The position numbers and the translations under genes were made by a program. DNA of 16,304 nt from a virus, in the UHGV virus genome UHGV-0073938, one strand, 5' to 3'. The notes below the pieces were generated by a model that saw only the letters and a list, made by a program, of their open reading frames with translations, did not search any database and had not been told where the DNA came from. Shown piece by piece: positions 448 through 5,989 of the stretch. The first letter of the stretch is position 1. Each line of letters begins with the position of its first letter.

Positions 448-1044
448 ATGATGCCTGCTGAACCTAAAACCTATAAACGCAAATCAACGCAATTTAAGCC
501 ACTAACAGCAATGCAGGAGGCTTATTGCCAGTCATACATCAAAACGCCTGAAAACCAGACTCAGGCAGCGATTAACGCAGGATTCTCCCCAAATACAGCG
601 GCAGTTAAAGCTAGTGTCATGATGCGCGATGAACGCATTCAAAAACGGATTGCCGAGTTGATGGAGGAGCGCAACAAACGAATGCGCGTCAGTGCTGATT
701 ACGTTCTCATGCGCCTGGTGGAGATCGACCAGATGGACGTGATCGACATCCTCAACGACGATGGGAGCCTTAAACCAATCCGTGAGTGGCCGAAAATCTG
801 GCGCACTACGCTTAGTGGCTTTGATCTGTCATCGACCATCATGAACATGAACGAGGATTCGATAGAGACAATCCTCAAAAAAATTAAATGGCCTGACAAG
901 GTGAAGAACCTTGAGCTGATTGGTAAGCATGTTGATGTCAACGCGTTCAAAGAACGTCTGGATGTTAATGTGAATGTGACAATTGCTGATCGCATAGCAG
1001 CAGCCAGGAAGCGACTCAAAGAACGTCAGGATGGTAATCAGTGA
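448..1044 (+). CDS. terminase small subunit
   Basis: The ORF-track start at 370 is TTG and would read through the 379-404 hairpin; the first in-frame ATG is 448. The N-terminal region (QEAYCQSYIKTPENQTQAAINAGFS...AAVKASVMMRDERIQKRIAEL) looks like the helix-turn-helix DNA-binding region typical of small terminase subunits. Stop overlaps the next start (ATGA at 1041-1044). Confidence 0.75.
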   Translation: MMPAEPKTYKRKSTQFKPLTAMQEAYCQSYIKTPENQTQAAINAGFSPNTAAVKASVMMRDERIQKRIAELMEERNKRMRVSADYVLMRLVEIDQMDVIDILNDDGSLKPIREWPKIWRTTLSGFDLSSTIMNMNEDSIETILKKIKWPDKVKNLELIGKHVDVNAFKERLDVNVNVTIADRIAAARKRLKERQDGNQ

Positions 1045-2510
1045 CAGATACAGCGTTATCTCCTGAAGAGCAGTTGATCGAGGATATTGCAGGGTTCACT
1101 CACGATCCGCTTGGCTATGCCCTCTATGCGTTCCCGTGGGGGGAAGAGGGTACTGAACTGGCACATGCCACCGGTCCACGTCAGTGGCAGGCCGATGCGT
1201 TCCGAGAGATACGTGATCACCTGCAGAATCCAGAGACGCGCTATCAGCCGCTTATGCTGGCACGCGCTTCTGGTCACGGTATTGGTAAATCCGCATTCAT
1301 CTCAATGCTGATCAACTGGGGCATGTCCACTTGCGAGGATTGTAAGGTCGTGGTGACCGCCAACACCGACAACCAGCTACGAACGAAGACCTGGCCGGAA
1401 ATTATCAAGTGGTCGAACCTTGCTATCACGAAAGACTGGTTTACCTGTACCGCTACTGCGATGTACAGCAATGATCCTGGGCACGACAAGCGGTGGCGAG
1501 CTGACGCAATCCCCTGGTCTGAGCACAACACTGAGGCATTCGCCGGACTACACAACGAGCGCAAACGCATCATCGTGGTATTCGATGAAGCGTCGAACAT
1601 TGCGGATCTGGTGTGGGAAGTTGCTGAGGGTGCGCTTACGGACGAAGACACTGAGATTATCTGGGTGGCGTTCGGAAACCCGACGCGTAATACCGGACGT
1701 TTCCGTGAATGTTTCCGCAAGTATAAACACCGCTGGAAAACTGCGCAGATTGACAGTCGGACGGTGGAAGGTACCAACAAACAGCAGTTGCAGAAATGGG
1801 TTGATGACTACGGGGAAGACAGCGACTTCGTTAAAATCCGTGTGCGTGGCATATTCCCTGATGCATCTGAATTGCAGTTTATCCCTACCGGTCTTACTGA
1901 CGAGGCAATGAAACGGGTGGTAACCGCTGCGCAGGTTGCACATGCTCCGGTGATAATCGGCGTTGACCCGGCATACTCCGGCGTTGATGACGCTGTGATA
2001 TACCTGCGGCAGGGGCTACACAGTAAGGTGCTGTGGACTGGCAACAAGACCACTGACGATCTGATAATGGCGAAGCGTATCGCTGACTTTGAAGACCAGT
2101 ACCAGGCTGACGCAGTGTTCATCGACTTCGGTTACGGAACTGGTCTGAAGTCAATCGGTGACGGCTGGGGTCGTACATGGCAACTTGTTCCGTTTGGTGG
2201 TGCGTCTACTGACCCGCAGATGCTCAACAAGCGTGGGGAGATGTTCAACTCATGCAAGACATGGCTGAGGCTGGGCGGCATGCTTGATGACCAGGAAACA
2301 GCGGACGACCTGTCGGCGGCAGAGTACAAAGTTCGAGTGGACGGTAAAATCGTTATCGAACCGAAGGAAGATATCAAGGAGCGGCTTGGGCGTTCTCCTG
2401 GTAAAGGCGATGCGCTACTGCTGACGTTTGCGTTCCCGGTAGCCAAGAAAACTAATGACCCACGGCAGCAGCAGGGCAGGGCTATAACAGACTATGACCC
2501 ATTTGAATGA
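1041..2510 (+). CDS. terminase large subunit
   Basis: 489 aa, translationally coupled to the preceding gene. Walker A-like P-loop (ARASGHGIGKS) near the N-terminus, followed by acidic motifs consistent with ATPase and nuclease domains. Confidence 0.85.
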   Translation: MTDTALSPEEQLIEDIAGFTHDPLGYALYAFPWGEEGTELAHATGPRQWQADAFREIRDHLQNPETRYQPLMLARASGHGIGKSAFISMLINWGMSTCEDCKVVVTANTDNQLRTKTWPEIIKWSNLAITKDWFTCTATAMYSNDPGHDKRWRADAIPWSEHNTEAFAGLHNERKRIIVVFDEASNIADLVWEVAEGALTDEDTEIIWVAFGNPTRNTGRFRECFRKYKHRWKTAQIDSRTVEGTNKQQLQKWVDDYGEDSDFVKIRVRGIFPDASELQFIPTGLTDEAMKRVVTAAQVAHAPVIIGVDPAYSGVDDAVIYLRQGLHSKVLWTGNKTTDDLIMAKRIADFEDQYQADAVFIDFGYGTGLKSIGDGWGRTWQLVPFGGASTDPQMLNKRGEMFNSCKTWLRLGGMLDDQETADDLSAAEYKVRVDGKIVIEPKEDIKERLGRSPGKGDALLLTFAFPVAKKTNDPRQQQGRAITDYDPFE

Positions 2511-2513
2511 TTT

Positions 2514-3362
2514 TTACTTTTGTGTTTTTGATTTTCTTTGATAGGTGGAATTTAAATCACCATTTATATTTACTAGAGGATTATTCAATAATGTACTGAT
2601 TTCTGGATTGTTAATTCCAGTAACGCCAAGTTTCTTTACGGACTCATTAAAGTCTTGTAATGATTTTAGACCTACAAGCCCATTAGCAATTGTATTATTT
2701 GTTGCCAAAGGAATGTTTTTCTTATAGGACTCATATTCGTTTTTTAAATTTTTGTGAGTTTTTTCTAGATTTTCTAGTTTAGATGTTGTTTCATCAATAA
2801 CCTTAGATAATTCTAAAATACGAGCTTGTGCTGCGCGCAGTTCTGTCTCCCTCTCTTTCAATTCAGATGTGAGTTGTCCCATTCTGTCTTTTGAAAGAAT
2901 TATTTCCTCTTTCATGTCTTGAATGTTTTTTTCAGCGCCTGTTTTTACTTTTTCGTAAGTAATGTCTTTTTTAGCCAGCAATCTCTGTAGCCGTGTTTCA
3001 CGTTGTATTTTTCTTGCCTTCCGGTGGTTTTCGATTGAGTCATTATTATCAAGAGGCTTTGCTTGCCATACGTTAATGATATTGTTTACCCATGGTAATA
3101 GGCAGCAGATAGTAATTACAGATAAGCATGGATAAAACATAACAGTTTTCCATGTGCTGTTATCTGAGATGTATGAAATTTTATCTATTATATTTGATTT
3201 GCTAAAAAATAGATAAAGAAGTGATTTCCAGTTGAAGGCGCACCAGGACATAACAAAAGCACCAAGCACAGGGTTTTTAGCTCGATGCACGGCAGTATTG
3301 GCAGTAGATGAAAACAGCTCTTTGAACGATTCGAACATACTAATTACCTTAAAGTTTTTCAT
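2514..3362 (-). CDS. hypothetical membrane-anchored coiled-coil protein (cargo gene; candidate exclusion/defence effector)
   Basis: Minus-strand ORF in a low-GC (about 30%) segment, versus about 50% in flanking phage genes. The track start at 3434 is TTG and overlaps a terminator. ATG at 3362 has AAGG 7 nt upstream; ATG at 3338 is an alternative start. Two hydrophobic segments (VLGAFVMSWCAFNWKSLLYLFF; VMFYPCLSVITICCLLPWV) precede about 100 aa of charged heptad-like sequence (KERETELRAAQARILELSKVIDETTSKLENLEK). Confidence 0.6.
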   Translation of the reverse strand: MKNFKVISMFESFKELFSSTANTAVHRAKNPVLGAFVMSWCAFNWKSLLYLFFSKSNIIDKISYISDNSTWKTVMFYPCLSVITICCLLPWVNNIINVWQAKPLDNNDSIENHRKARKIQRETRLQRLLAKKDITYEKVKTGAEKNIQDMKEEIILSKDRMGQLTSELKERETELRAAQARILELSKVIDETTSKLENLEKTHKNLKNEYESYKKNIPLATNNTIANGLVGLKSLQDFNESVKKLGVTGINNPEISTLLNNPLVNINGDLNSTYQRKSKTQK

Positions 3363-3363
3363 G

Positions 3364-3392
3364 ATTATACCTTTAAGGTAATTTGTGGTCAT
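3364..3392 (-). promoter_or_regulatory. possible sigma70-type promoter for the cargo gene
   Basis: Minus strand reads ATGACC (3392-3387), a 17 nt spacer, then TATAAT (3369-3364). A start here would favour the ATG at 3338, which has AAGG 8 nt upstream. Sequence-only guess. Confidence 0.3.
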
Positions 3393-3397
3393 CAGGC

Positions 3398-3421
3398 AAA
3401 AAATGCCCGGACGAACCGGGC
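3398..3421 (-). terminator. intrinsic terminator (minus strand)
   Basis: Minus strand reads GCCCGG-TTCGT-CCGGGC followed by ATTTTTT (hairpin 3405-3421, T-run 3398-3403). Confidence 0.5.
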
Positions 3422-3499
3422 GAACTGGAAGCAATGAGTTATGCCTTCCGTGGCTGTACTGGTTTACAGCATGAAGTCATCGCAATGGCGTCCTGCTGT

Positions 3500-3541
3500 A
3501 AAAAGGGCGGTGATAGTCCTTCAAGGGAAACCATCACCGCC
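3500..3541 (-). terminator. terminator-like hairpin downstream of the tRNA (minus strand)
   Basis: 9 bp stem (3506-3514 with 3533-3541) and an 18 nt loop, followed on the minus strand by CTTTTT (3500-3505). The loop is large for a typical terminator. Confidence 0.35.
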
Positions 3542-3584
3542 AAGCACCTGGAACTTCTGGCATCACGGTCCTTAGGCGTGATTC

Positions 3585-3661
3585 TGGCGTGGCATGCAGT
3601 ATTCGAACCTGCGACCAACCGCTTAGAAGGCGGTTGCTCTGTCCAACTGAGCTAATGCCAC
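3585..3661 (-). tRNA. tRNA-Arg (anticodon UCU)
   Basis: Minus strand folds as a cloverleaf by hand: acceptor GTGGCAT/ATGCCAC (7 bp), D-stem GCTC/GAGC, anticodon stem ACCGC/GCGGT with loop CTTCTAA (anticodon TCT), T-loop TTCGAAT, discriminator G and encoded CCA. The fifth T-stem pair is a G-A mismatch. Confidence 0.85.
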
Positions 3662-3960
3662 AACGCTGAGAGCACTTAGCCTGTTAAGGCGCCACACTTT
3701 GTCGCGGCTCCATAAATGCTCTCATCGTTGTACCCTCGTCTCTTCCGAGGCGTCACACCGAATCGCCGGGATGGTGAATCCCCGTGCGCGGAATAAAACC
3801 GCTCGACTTGCACATTCCGGCTACCTGGTTCGTTTGCCCGAGCAAGGGAGGGTGCCCCTTAAACGTATCCAGACCGCTATCGGCGCATGTGCCATACACC
3901 GTACTGCTCAAAATAAAAGCTCACCCCACCTGTTCAATTTAACGACAAGCCAGTCAGGTT
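3662..3960. other. GC-rich ORF-less segment; possible structured RNA, tRNA leader or recombination scar
   Basis: About 300 nt with no convincing ORF on either strand. The only track ORF (3699-3962) lacks an RBS and reads like noncoding translation. Several short GC-rich inverted repeats. No second cloverleaf found by hand. Confidence 0.3.
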
Positions 3961-4075
3961 AATAACCGGAATGAACTCTTTGCTTACCTGAAAGGTAATA
4001 ATTAGTGCGTTAAATGTCAAGTATCTACGATAAATAAATCATATGTGGTTAAATTGGTAATAATTTAATTGCGTA

Positions 4076-4087
4076 CGGAGTCATTGA
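4076..4087 (+). repeat. 12 nt direct repeat CGGAGTCATTGA, copy 1 (start context of the small ORF)
   Basis: Exact match to 4297-4308; both copies end 1 nt before an ATG. Confidence 0.4.
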
Positions 4088-4088
4088 T

Positions 4089-4295
4089 ATGTGCATGGGT
4101 AGCTCACCATCAGTGCCTGCAACACCAGAAGTTCAGGCAGCACCACAGGAGCAGGATGCCGCCGTTGTTGATGCCCGCGACGAAGAAACTCGTCGCCGTC
4201 GCGCTGCTGCTGGTCGTAGTTCTACGCTGCTTACCGGTTCTCAGGGCGACACATCAACCGCTAATACCAGCGGTAAAACGCTGCTTGGTCAGTAA
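4089..4295 (+). CDS. hypothetical small protein, 68 aa, predicted disordered and charged
   Basis: ATG at 4089 with GGAG 8 nt upstream. Codon usage resembles the neighbouring phage genes. Start context CGGAGTCATTGA is repeated at the portal start. Confidence 0.45.
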   Translation: MCMGSSPSVPATPEVQAAPQEQDAAVVDARDEETRRRRAAAGRSSTLLTGSQGDTSTANTSGKTLLGQ

Positions 4296-4309: not shown

Positions 4310-5989
4310 ATGGCGGAAACAACTAAAGAGCGATTGAACAAACAGTTCGCACAACTTGAAAGCGAGCGTCAGTCGTTCGAGCCGCACTGGCGCGAGTTGA
4401 GTGATTACATCAACCCGCGTGGTTCCCGCTTTCTGACTTCTGAGGTCAACCGTAACGATCGACGCAATACACGTATTATTGATTCGACCGGGACTATGGC
4501 GGCGCGCACTCTCGCCAGCGGCATGATGTCAGGCATCACAAGCCCCGCGCGTCCGTGGTTTCGCCTGGCTACGCCAGATCCTGAAATGATGGATTATGGC
4601 CCTGTTAAGTTGTGGCTTGAGGCGGTGCAGAACCGCATGAACGATATGTTCAATAATTCGAATCTCTATCAGTCGCTGCCGCAGTTATACGGAAGCCTCG
4701 GCACATACAGCACTGGTGCAATGGCAGTGCTGGAGGATGACGAGGACATCATTCGCACAATGCCATTCCCGATAGGCAGTTACTACCTGGCTAACTCACC
4801 TCGTGGCAGTGTGGACACCTGTTTTCGCAAGTTCTCTATGACTGTTCGTCAGCTTGTTCAGGAGTTCGGGCTAAATAACGTCAGCGAATCCGTAAAAAGC
4901 ATGTGGGAAAGCGGAACCTACGAGAAGTGGATTGAAGTGATGCATTCGGTTTACCCGAACATTGACCGCGATACATCGAAGCTGGATAGCAAGAACAAGC
5001 CATTCAAATCGGTTTATTACGAGGTTGGTGGCGATAACGACAAGTTGTTGCGTGAGTCCGGATTCGATGAGTTTCCAATTATGGCTCCGCGCTGGGAAGT
5101 TAACGGCGAAGATGTTTATGGATCATCATGCCCGGGTATGCTGGCGCTTGGACCTGTTAAGGCATTGCAGCTTCTCCAGAAGCGCAAGTCGCAGTTGATT
5201 GATAAAGCCACCAATCCGCCGATGGTTGCTCCGACTTCCCTCAAGAATCAGCGTGCCTCCCTTCTTCCTGGCGACATCACGTATATCGATCAGATTACTG
5301 GTCAGGATGGTTTCAGGCCTGCTTATCTGGTTAACCCCAGTACAGCAGATTTGGTGGCAGACATTCAGGACACCCGTCAAATCATTAACAGCGCCTACTT
5401 TGTCGATCTGTTCATGATGTTGCAGAACATCAATACCCGCTCGATGCCTGTTGAAGCGGTGATCGAAATGAAAGAAGAAAAACTTCTGATGTTGGGGCCG
5501 GTTCTGGAGCGTCTGAACGACGAATGTCTTAATCCTCTCATTGATCGCGCTTTCTCGATGATGGTGCGTAAAAACATGCTGCCGCCACCGCCTGACGCGA
5601 TGGAAGGTATGCCCCTGAAGGTCGAATACATTTCCGTCATGGCTCAGGCGCAGAAGTCTATCGGCCTGTCCAGTCTGGCGTCTACGGTCAACTTCATTGG
5701 TCAACTTGCGCAAGCGAAACCAGAAGCTCTCGACAAACTCAACGTTGATCAGGCGATCGATGCATTCGCTGATATGTCCGGAGTGTCTCCAACCGTCATT
5801 GTTCCGCAGGAACAGGTTGAGCAGGCTCGCCAGCAACGGGCACAGCAACAACAGCAGCAACAAATGATGGCGATGGGGATGGCGGCGGCACAGGGTGCCA
5901 AGACGCTAAGCGAAGCTAAAACTTCGGATCCGAGTGTTTTGTCAGCTATGGCGAATGCAGTTAGTGGTCAGGGTGGGCAATCACAATGA
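4310..5989 (+). CDS. portal protein
   Basis: 559 aa ORF as the first large gene after the terminase pair and before scaffold-like and capsid genes. GGAG-type RBS. Gln-rich C-terminal tail. Stop overlaps the next start (ATGA at 5986-5989). Call is by size and position; no diagnostic motif verified. Confidence 0.75.
   Translation: MAETTKERLNKQFAQLESERQSFEPHWRELSDYINPRGSRFLTSEVNRNDRRNTRIIDSTGTMAARTLASGMMSGITSPARPWFRLATPDPEMMDYGPVKLWLEAVQNRMNDMFNNSNLYQSLPQLYGSLGTYSTGAMAVLEDDEDIIRTMPFPIGSYYLANSPRGSVDTCFRKFSMTVRQLVQEFGLNNVSESVKSMWESGTYEKWIEVMHSVYPNIDRDTSKLDSKNKPFKSVYYEVGGDNDKLLRESGFDEFPIMAPRWEVNGEDVYGSSCPGMLALGPVKALQLLQKRKSQLIDKATNPPMVAPTSLKNQRASLLPGDITYIDQITGQDGFRPAYLVNPSTADLVADIQDTRQIINSAYFVDLFMMLQNINTRSMPVEAVIEMKEEKLLMLGPVLERLNDECLNPLIDRAFSMMVRKNMLPPPPDAMEGMPLKVEYISVMAQAQKSIGLSSLASTVNFIGQLAQAKPEALDKLNVDQAIDAFADMSGVSPTVIVPQEQVEQARQQRAQQQQQQQMMAMGMAAAQGAKTLSEAKTSDPSVLSAMANAVSGQGGQSQ

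Follow-up and report, generated by a model that had tools for sequence, protein, structure and literature searches.

A large family of structured RNAs in temperate phages of Enterobacteriaceae

Temperate phages of Enterobacteriaceae carry a large family of structured RNAs that is new to Rfam. One member has its conserved core at positions 3728-3902 (175 nt, minus strand) of the window, the 16,304-nt stretch of viral DNA (UHGV-0073938) analysed here; the core was delimited by nhmmer, a covariance model and pair counts. The original prediction had singled out 3662-3960 as a GC-rich segment beside a tRNA gene. This segment is the front part of a larger non-coding RNA, and the feature is bigger than had been described. 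It is best explained as the 5' domain of a non-coding transcription unit of about 600 nt on the minus strand. As a phage early-leader RNA element, it has a real chance of forming a new class of RNA antiterminator or of host-targeting RNA.

Layout of the non-coding unit in the window

The window comes from a phiV10/epsilon15-like (Uetakevirus) phage or prophage of E. coli; over 701 bases around the GC-rich segment it is 98.8% identical to phiV10 (BLAST). The genes for the small and large terminase are on the plus strand and end at 2510, and the portal operon begins near 4089. Between them lies a minus-strand block made up of an AT-rich ORF (2514-3362) and an ORF-less GC-rich stretch (approximately 3400-3950). 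GC content is 0.55-0.58 over 3600-3899, 0.36 at 3900-4099 and 0.33-0.38 at 3000-3399. The GC-rich block thus spans from about 3400 to about 3950, and takes in the tRNA and some 190 nt past it. The segment had been described as sharply different from AT-rich sequence on either side; this holds beyond 3900, but the tRNA side of 3662-3960 is not AT-rich. As predicted, the segment contains no credible ORF: there are only mechanical ORFs of 45-87 aa, and no frame is kept across the family. It also lies, as described, directly 5' of tRNA-Arg (anticodon UCU) at 3585-3661 on the minus strand (ARAGORN; 62.9 bits with the Rfam tRNA model). This is the sole tRNA, and the failure to find a second cloverleaf by hand in 3662-3960 was repeated with ARAGORN and with the Rfam tRNA model.

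The order of the unit is promoter/operator (~4020-3984), leader, core, hairpin P6, tRNA-Arg, further hairpins, two terminators (to ~3397) and the ORF. Its predicted promoter, read from the sequence, consists of a -35 hexamer TTGACA (4015-4020, minus strand) and a -10 hexamer TACCTT (3997-3992, minus strand) with a 17-nt spacer. A stricter promoter scan did not list this TTGACA-17-TACCTT promoter of the window. The hexamers are kept upstream of the element, at variable distance, in many epsilon15-like contexts, including epsilon15 itself. The 5' leader (3903-3985, minus strand), from the predicted start to the core, is conserved in epsilon15-like phages only. In several other contexts only 7-8 nt separate the -10 hexamer from the start of the core, so the leader is dispensable for the family.

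Overlapping the -10 hexamer is the operator palindrome TTACCTGAAAGGTAA (3984-3998), a perfect TTACCT-N3-AGGTAA. There are 15 such sites in phiV10 (0.87 expected), and the homologous site of epsilon15 is annotated as a repressor binding site. Among the phiV10 palindromes are pairs in the interval that separates the repressor and cro-like genes, and immediately past the repressor gene. The remainder are mostly intergenic: they are found before the integrase gene, near the tail-fibre gene and before p45, and also in the gap from oac to the membrane-protein gene that precedes the holin gene. This pattern suggests that a single regulator acts on many phiV10 promoters. A version of the palindrome with one mismatch, ATACCTTTAAGGTAA, is present in the window at 3367-3381, just upstream of the ATG of ORF 2514-3362.

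Past the tRNA, the 3' module starts with a conserved hairpin, AAUCACG-CCUAAGGAC-CGUGAU (3562-3582, minus strand), which could be aligned in epsilon15-like and many lambdoid contexts and is absent or unrecognisable in cdtI-type units. It is followed by a terminator-like hairpin at 3497-3541 (minus strand; terminator scan) with the stem GGCGGUG/CACCGCC, a loop containing UUCCCUUGA and then CUUUUUACAG. This hairpin ends in CCGCCCUUUUUACAG, and its sequence is itself conserved. It was found downstream of the core in 90 of the 146 instances listed, at a median distance of 226 nt; the distance ranges from 190 to 700 nt, an interval taken up by a whole tRNA or by variable inserts. The loop motif is common to this hairpin and the apical loop of helix P2 in the core. 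A second intrinsic terminator (3397-3452, hairpin 3421-3405, minus strand; terminator scan) often follows the first in units of the family. In epsilon15-like and lambdoid units alike, the core is separated from the first co-oriented ORF by one or two predicted intrinsic terminators, with no ORF in the interval.

The 3' end of the unit resembles a small RNA (...CUCAUUGCUUCCAGUUCGCCCGGUUCGUCCGGGCAUUUUUU; window 3397-3452, minus strand). Before the second terminator is the 12-nt RyhB-seed-like sequence AUUGCUUCCAGU, which equals the Rfam RyhB consensus and has its own terminator after it; the RyhB model itself gives a weak match (19.4 bits, E = 0.64). The motif is present in 31 of 142 instances listed, in epsilon15-like and related contexts. 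Judging from these likenesses, 3397-3452 may encode a phage-borne mimic of RyhB. Directly after the second terminator comes the AT-rich ORF (2514-3362, minus strand; 282 aa, GC ~0.29-0.38). It has no significant Pfam match and stands in the place of the unrelated PhiV10p03 of phiV10. An assignment as the O-acetyltransferase of phiV10 is wrong; oac is at 23.6 kb in that genome.

Structure and distribution of the core RNA

Instances of the core were pooled from an exact-pattern scan of IMG/VR and a pattern scan of one genome per bacterial species. There are at least 155 of them, at least 117 of which are distinct. The real genome matches in the one-genome-per-species scan are all in Enterobacteriaceae; outside this family, other pattern matches are at the level expected by chance for 18 specified bases. 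BLAST finds homologues of ~3655-3902 at about 80-83% identity in otherwise unrelated phages. Lambdoid carriers include cdtI, mEp460, 2H10, Ayreon and Stx2c- and Stx2a-converting phages, and the phage-plasmid carriers are P1, P7 and P1-like phage-plasmids. The element also occurs in epsilon15-like phages of Salmonella, Enterobacter and Klebsiella, in Klebsiella phage SopranoGao, in phage BUCT708 and in Lastavirus. Among complete E. coli genomes, 1840 of 5426 (34%) contain the core, at 2471 places, 554 of them on plasmids. None of these copies is annotated as such, which points to a gap in routine genome annotation.

E-values in the family reach 1e-54 among the matches listed. The core of the window scores 136.9 bits with nhmmer (E = 3e-40), and covariance model R1 matches 3719-3908 on the minus strand with 169 bits (E = 4e-53). 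The element occupies one place per phage genome; the covariance model has a single match in the window and a single match in the whole of phiV10. An Rfam search had been proposed as a check. With the 4227 models of Rfam 15, the tRNA is the only match in the window at gathering score, and nothing within 3662-3960 appears at E <= 10; a search of five homologous loci likewise placed no family on the element. Searchable literature of limited coverage (put and antitermination, structured-RNA surveys, prophage small RNAs, P1 transcriptomics) holds no description of it, and the invariant blocks, looked for as strings in full-text literature of limited coverage, led to no paper. The prophage small RNAs covered in that literature were AgvB, AsxR and the Pas RNAs; the last are encoded close to Q and the holin gene, among the late genes.

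The alignment consists of invariant blocks interrupted by variable hairpins. The blocks are, in order, AUGGCACAUG, AGCGGUC, GGUAGCCGGAAUGUGCAAG, UCACCA, GGCGAU, GGUGUGAC and GGAAGAGAC. Read along the minus strand, the core begins with helix P1 (3901-3896/3886-3881). Helix P2 (3872-3869/3828-3825) encloses a variable insert, and P3 (~3805-3785) is a variable hairpin. Helix P4 (3782-3778/3772-3768) is followed by P5 (3750-3746/3738-3734), which has the loop GAAGAGA. The P4 loop CACC (3776-3773) pairs with a downstream GGUG (3759-3756); 22 of 116 sequences have AACC/GGUU instead. One of the latter (L137) stands apart from the cdtI group, next to a close relative (L154) that keeps CACC/GGUG. By these compensating changes the pairing is taken to be an H-type pseudoknot, PK2. 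A further candidate pseudoknot, PK1, would join GCACAU (3892-3887) to AUGUGC (3815-3810); both strands of this pairing are invariant, so it is plausible but unproven.

Helices P1, P2, P4, P5 and P6 and the pseudoknot PK2 co-vary across independent contexts, which include phage P1, epsilon15-like phages, Lastavirus, and lambdoid phages whose cI proteins form five clusters at 60% identity. For the 30 pairs of a six-helix structure, standard base pairs are found in 95.1% of 3459 cells, compared with 26-46% when the partners are slid by 1-3 columns. Changes on both sides are seen in 14 of the 30 tested pairs, and the observed covariation score was reached by none of 500 shuffles. The short GC-rich inverted repeats of the original prediction are therefore real helices (P1, P2, P4, P5 and P6, with the two loop pairings) at a level far above chance. 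Comparative folding, also proposed as a check, gave conserved helices: from a model-based alignment, RNAalifold independently recovers PK1, P2, P4 and P5, and it adds a three-pair helix at alignment columns 108-110/151-153. G-U pairs are abundant (one pair in helix P1 is U-G in 113 of 116 sequences). These would be A-C mismatches on the plus strand, which places the RNA on the minus strand. Single-sequence folding is modestly unusual, with z = -2.3 on the minus strand and -2.6 on the plus strand. It cannot separate the strands and gives only a modest z, so the case rests on comparative evidence.

It had been proposed that the segment is a processed leader or a small RNA. A minus-strand RNA 5' of the tRNA is strongly supported by the covariation and the strand-specific G-U pairs, and the proposal comes near to the best explanation. 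The idea of a remnant of another RNA gene is not supported: the family is intact and under purifying selection, and there is no Rfam match. A protein-coding gene in decay, an attachment site and GC-rich sequence that arose by chance together have a negligible probability. Some records do annotate hypothetical ORFs over the element, mEp460_037 being an example. A pseudogenised coding fragment, which had been named as grounds for rejection, finds no support in the reading frames, and conservation is present. The best frame is stop-free in 39 of 114 family members, indels between the anchor blocks have lengths that are not multiples of three (the anchor spacings are not codon-sized), and the covariation is strand-specific; a protein-coding gene or pseudogene is refuted. 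An attachment site was suggested originally and is contradicted by the position of the phiV10 integrase gene, at 26.9 kb and about 24 kb from the element (2.9-3.2 kb). The attP of the close relative ZX5 lies beside int, at a distance of 190 bp, and its attB is at guaA (PMC9782041). Chance is opposed by the homologous instances, which number at least 155.

P6 and the tRNA slot

The core is followed by the long hairpin P6 (3662-3730, minus strand; CAACGAUGAGAGCA...UGCUCUCAGCGUU), which at its 3' end borders directly on G1 of the tRNA. P6 is found in 83 of the 129 distinct contexts listed. It always ends in xGUU, followed by GUG[GA], and in these 83 contexts its 3' end is located exactly at +1 of a tRNA or tRNA-like element. 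The stem has compensating changes (GAGAGCA/UGCUCUC, GGAAAAGGCG/CGCCGUUUCC and GAGAGUA/UACUCUC). The 3' strand of P6 was also considered as a boxA; this was ruled out, as the stretch varies with compensating changes in the manner of a helix.

The association with a tRNA that the original prediction drew is real, though not in the form implied: a tRNA lies within 400 nt of the core in 44 of 155 instances listed. tRNA-Arg(UCU) fills the slot after P6 in 26 instances listed, the window included, and the slot of L136 holds what is apparently the 3' part of a different tRNA. The other instances that bear P6 have a tRNA-like structure in the same slot, consisting of a 5' acceptor-like strand GUGGUGA, a D-arm-like hairpin, a variable insert and a T-arm-like hairpin. 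The last of these abuts a complementary CACCAC, and the pairing co-varies to GUGAU/GUCAC. Nearly all of the approximately 30 contexts of the GUGGUGA class have the T-arm-like hairpin and the acceptor complement; a few of the matches look spurious, and some of the real hairpins have the canonical GGUUCGACUCC loop. No tRNA-like element scores with the Rfam tRNA model at E below 0.5.

Genomic contexts in other phages

The element is always co-oriented with its neighbours. In 66 instances listed, the upstream same-strand neighbour belongs to one cluster of cI-like proteins, the representative of which has HTH and S24 peptidase domains. For members with the S24 motif, the stop codon lies 100-175 nt before the core in 46 of 49 cases; these proteins form five clusters at 60% identity. 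Phage cdtI has the order cI stop codon, terminator, near-consensus promoter (TTGACA-16-CATAAT) and, 52 nt later, the core. The promoter is overlapped by an operator-like 17-mer, and two copies of this 17-mer, 76% identical, are found between cI and cro. This arrangement corresponds to the position of pL/OL and would make the element the first RNA made from pL. With promoters predicted by consensus, the core is normally the first thing to be transcribed from a repressor-controlled early promoter, and it directly follows such promoters in three unrelated groups of phages.

In phage P1, the core is located between tRNA-Ile2, which is 15 nt upstream, and ban, within the C1-controlled ban operon. 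No terminator lies between the core and ban, which is 94 nt downstream, and P1-type copies are without the terminator module. Genes downstream of the element are unlike in function: besides the ban helicase gene and a tRNA gene, there are uncharacterised early-left genes, a gene resembling an excisionase gene and a Tad2-like gene. In the P1-like IMG/VR contig that has this last gene (L110), it encodes a Tad2-like (Thoeris anti-defence 2) domain, lies 265 nt downstream of the core and replaces ban. In one Stx2c phage (L178), there is no N-type antiterminator PHROG among the first five early-left ORFs.

Epsilon15 (2446-2541) retains only positions 1-50 of the core model, fused to the terminator hairpin. 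The sequence of this remnant looks like the product of a deletion between copies of the loop motif UUCCCUUGAUGCU, which is common to P2 and the terminator hairpin. An 'RNaseIII' site in the epsilon15 record, on the opposite strand, overlaps the 5' edge of the remnant.

Several other RNA matches and annotations were noted at these loci. Directly downstream of the element in BUCT708 (1855-1974, minus strand) is an RprA-like Rfam match that falls short of the gathering score (50.2 bits, with 70 required; E = 9e-4). Phage Tyrion has a match to the int-alpA RNA further down the same minus-strand block (950-1014, minus strand), and this one exceeds the gathering score (44 bits against 35.8). In cdtI, matches to isrK and C4 antisense RNA, above the gathering score, are present at 5280-5468 (plus strand) inside an annotated antirepressor gene; by these matches the region is classed as an immI-like RNA module in a lambdoid phage, on the pR side. 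Two annotated genes, PhiV10p04 of phiV10 (2672-2923) and mEp460_037 of mEp460 (2934-3302), are on the strand opposite the non-coding unit, and the latter spans the core. Both are probably spurious calls.

Possible mechanisms and known systems

The best-supported mechanism, by analogy with known systems, is that of a cis-acting RNA which would carry RNA polymerase past the downstream terminators. This preference is tentative and somewhat short of an even chance. The folded core would bind the polymerase that has just transcribed it, and the polymerase so bound would resist the terminators downstream, as well as Rho acting on a leader that is long and untranslated. Loss of the repressor would then allow expression of the tRNA, of the 3' small RNAs and of genes further on. 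The tRNA or tRNA-like structure after P6 would probably guide RNase P to free the core from the downstream transcript. Such a mechanism is favoured because in lambdoid carriers the stretch from pL to the early-left genes contains terminators and no gene, because no N gene is present at the position of lambda's N (in the ORFs of one Stx2c phage), and because the core is the sole conserved element upstream of the terminators. Since the core is about 80% identical across P1, lambdoid phages and podoviruses, a conserved host partner is likely. Several points weigh against the cis-acting mechanism. The element is single in each genome, whereas HK022 has put after both pL and pR, and in phage P1 no terminator intervenes between the core and ban. 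A general antiterminator does not need the sequence conservation seen in the first terminator-like hairpin, and the consistent junction with a tRNA or tRNA-like element is just as compatible with a free RNA being released.

Such a release is the basis of the main rival reading, in which the core and P6 would form a stable trans-acting RNA that binds a conserved host protein or RNA, once RNase P has cut where the tRNA or tRNA-like element begins. Its purpose would be to aid takeover or to counter defence, with the terminators merely closing a non-coding RNA operon; in P1, release would occur through 3' processing of the tRNA-Ile just upstream. This reading is only a little less probable than the cis-acting one, and much fits it. 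P6 meets +1 of the following element in all the contexts listed that have it, the T-arm-like hairpins stand by their acceptor complements, and the core of P1 begins so shortly past tRNA-Ile. The remainder of the unit is small-RNA-like, with the RyhB-seed-like 3' end in the window and the RprA-like match in BUCT708. The Tad2-like anti-defence neighbour of one P1-like variant and a complex fold suited to specific binding point the same way. Against this, the processing is read from sequence alone, the tRNA-like elements fail with the Rfam tRNA model, and a trans-acting RNA has no need of its near-constant place after an early promoter and before terminators and genes. The trans-acting and cis-acting readings are not mutually exclusive. 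It is possible, if rather doubtful, that the element adds to put and EAR a third class of processive antiterminator made of RNA only and unrelated to both, or else that RNase P, guided by the tRNA-like element, sets free a phage RNA whose target is a conserved host machine; in either case it would replace N/nut at pL in a large group of lambdoid phages.

An improbable alternative is that the core is a sensor or recruitment site which governs the conserved terminator, either as a nut-like site for a phage antiterminator protein or in the manner of a riboswitch. The conservation of the terminator-like hairpin, with the loop motif it has in common with the P2 apical loop, would suit such a role; the 5-bp hairpin P5 and its GAAGAGA loop recall lambda boxB, and the invariant junction nucleotides and two pseudoknots are aptamer-like. 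However, the terminator is 190-700 nt from the core, past a tRNA or inserts, and so does not fit a riboswitch expression platform. The downstream genes are functionally unrelated, the terminator module is missing from P1-type copies, and the boxA-like stretch of P6 is a compensating helix. A riboswitch was rejected on both the coupling of aptamer to platform and the coherence of downstream genes, neither of which is seen. More improbable still is that the core is a passive structural leader, serving either as a 5' cap against 5'-end-dependent decay or as an aid to the folding and processing of the tRNA or small RNA. Its 5'-terminal place, with the -10 hexamer so near the core in several contexts, and its linkage to tRNA and tRNA-like elements agree with this. 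However, some 175 nt with invariant loops and junctions and ~80% identity across unrelated phages exceed the needs of a protective hairpin, and the core of P1 is internal to an operon.

The cis-acting mechanism has its closest parallel in the put sites of phage HK022. put is a cis-acting, protein-independent processive antiterminator of a lambdoid phage that lacks N, with sites after pL and pR. Like putL and putR, the element is in the nascent transcript, just past a repressor-controlled pL, and has terminators before the early genes; its lambdoid carriers lack N at the position of lambda's N (checked in one Stx2c phage), and it is closely followed by a processing site, that of RNase III in the case of put and a putative one at the tRNA or tRNA-like element here. 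Confinement to enterobacterial phages, as with put, suggests that host RNA polymerase is the partner. Unlike put, which is about 70 nt long with two stems, the element has ~175-245 nt, six or more helices and either one pseudoknot or two; it is present in one copy, with none on the pR side, and occurs in P1 and epsilon15-like podoviruses too. The likeness is one of map position and layout. Homology with put was rejected: the family HMM and the covariance model give only chance matches in the HK022 genome, one of them in nun. Sloan et al. (2007) reportedly found put to be active after an RNase III cut just downstream; put RNA tolerates such a cut.

At the same map position (cI, OL/pL, leader), phage lambda has the nutL/N leader, and the 5-bp P5 with its purine-rich loop is boxB-like. 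Unlike lambda, the element has no N-type protein downstream (in one Stx2c phage) and no conserved boxA, and it is far larger and more conserved. A nut site of the lambda type was ruled out on the early-left ORFs of that phage and on the helix formed by the boxA-like stretch.

EAR is a multi-helix, pseudoknotted antiterminator located mid-operon. The EAR/epsC RNA of Bacillus (RF01735) is similar to the element in the complexity of its fold, with helices and a pseudoknot, and in being internal to an operon, as is the P1 copy. It differs in that the element has no Rfam match and EAR is found in a chromosomal exopolysaccharide operon of Firmicutes, not in phages. To our knowledge, very few examples of RNA-only control of transcription elongation have been described, and put has been regarded as a curiosity of one group of phages. 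The element is at the map position of put in many heteroimmune lambdoid phages that apparently lack N there; it also occurs in P1, a laboratory workhorse, and in Stx2-converting phages. It could explain read-through of the terminators ahead of the early-left genes, and would give structural studies a novel RNA ligand of RNA polymerase or of some other host machine.

Structured RNAs encoded by phages together with tRNAs are also known from T4, in which the stable species 1 and 2 RNAs belong to the phage tRNA cluster. These are likewise co-transcribed with tRNAs, but T4 is a different type of phage and its RNAs have no link to a repressor-controlled early promoter. Non-coding RNAs beside a tRNA or tRNA-like element that may set an end include the C4 RNA of P1/P7, the CI RNA of P4, the TMERs of MHV68 and MALAT1-mascRNA. 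The C4 model misses the element, and the C4 and isrK matches of cdtI lie elsewhere. Compared with the RNase P-processed phage RNAs C4 and CI, the tRNA-like element here would set the 3' end of the RNA, by a predicted cleavage. The regularity of this tRNA or tRNA-derived partner suggests that in bacterial viruses, as in herpesviruses, tRNA shapes serve to direct the processing of non-coding RNAs.
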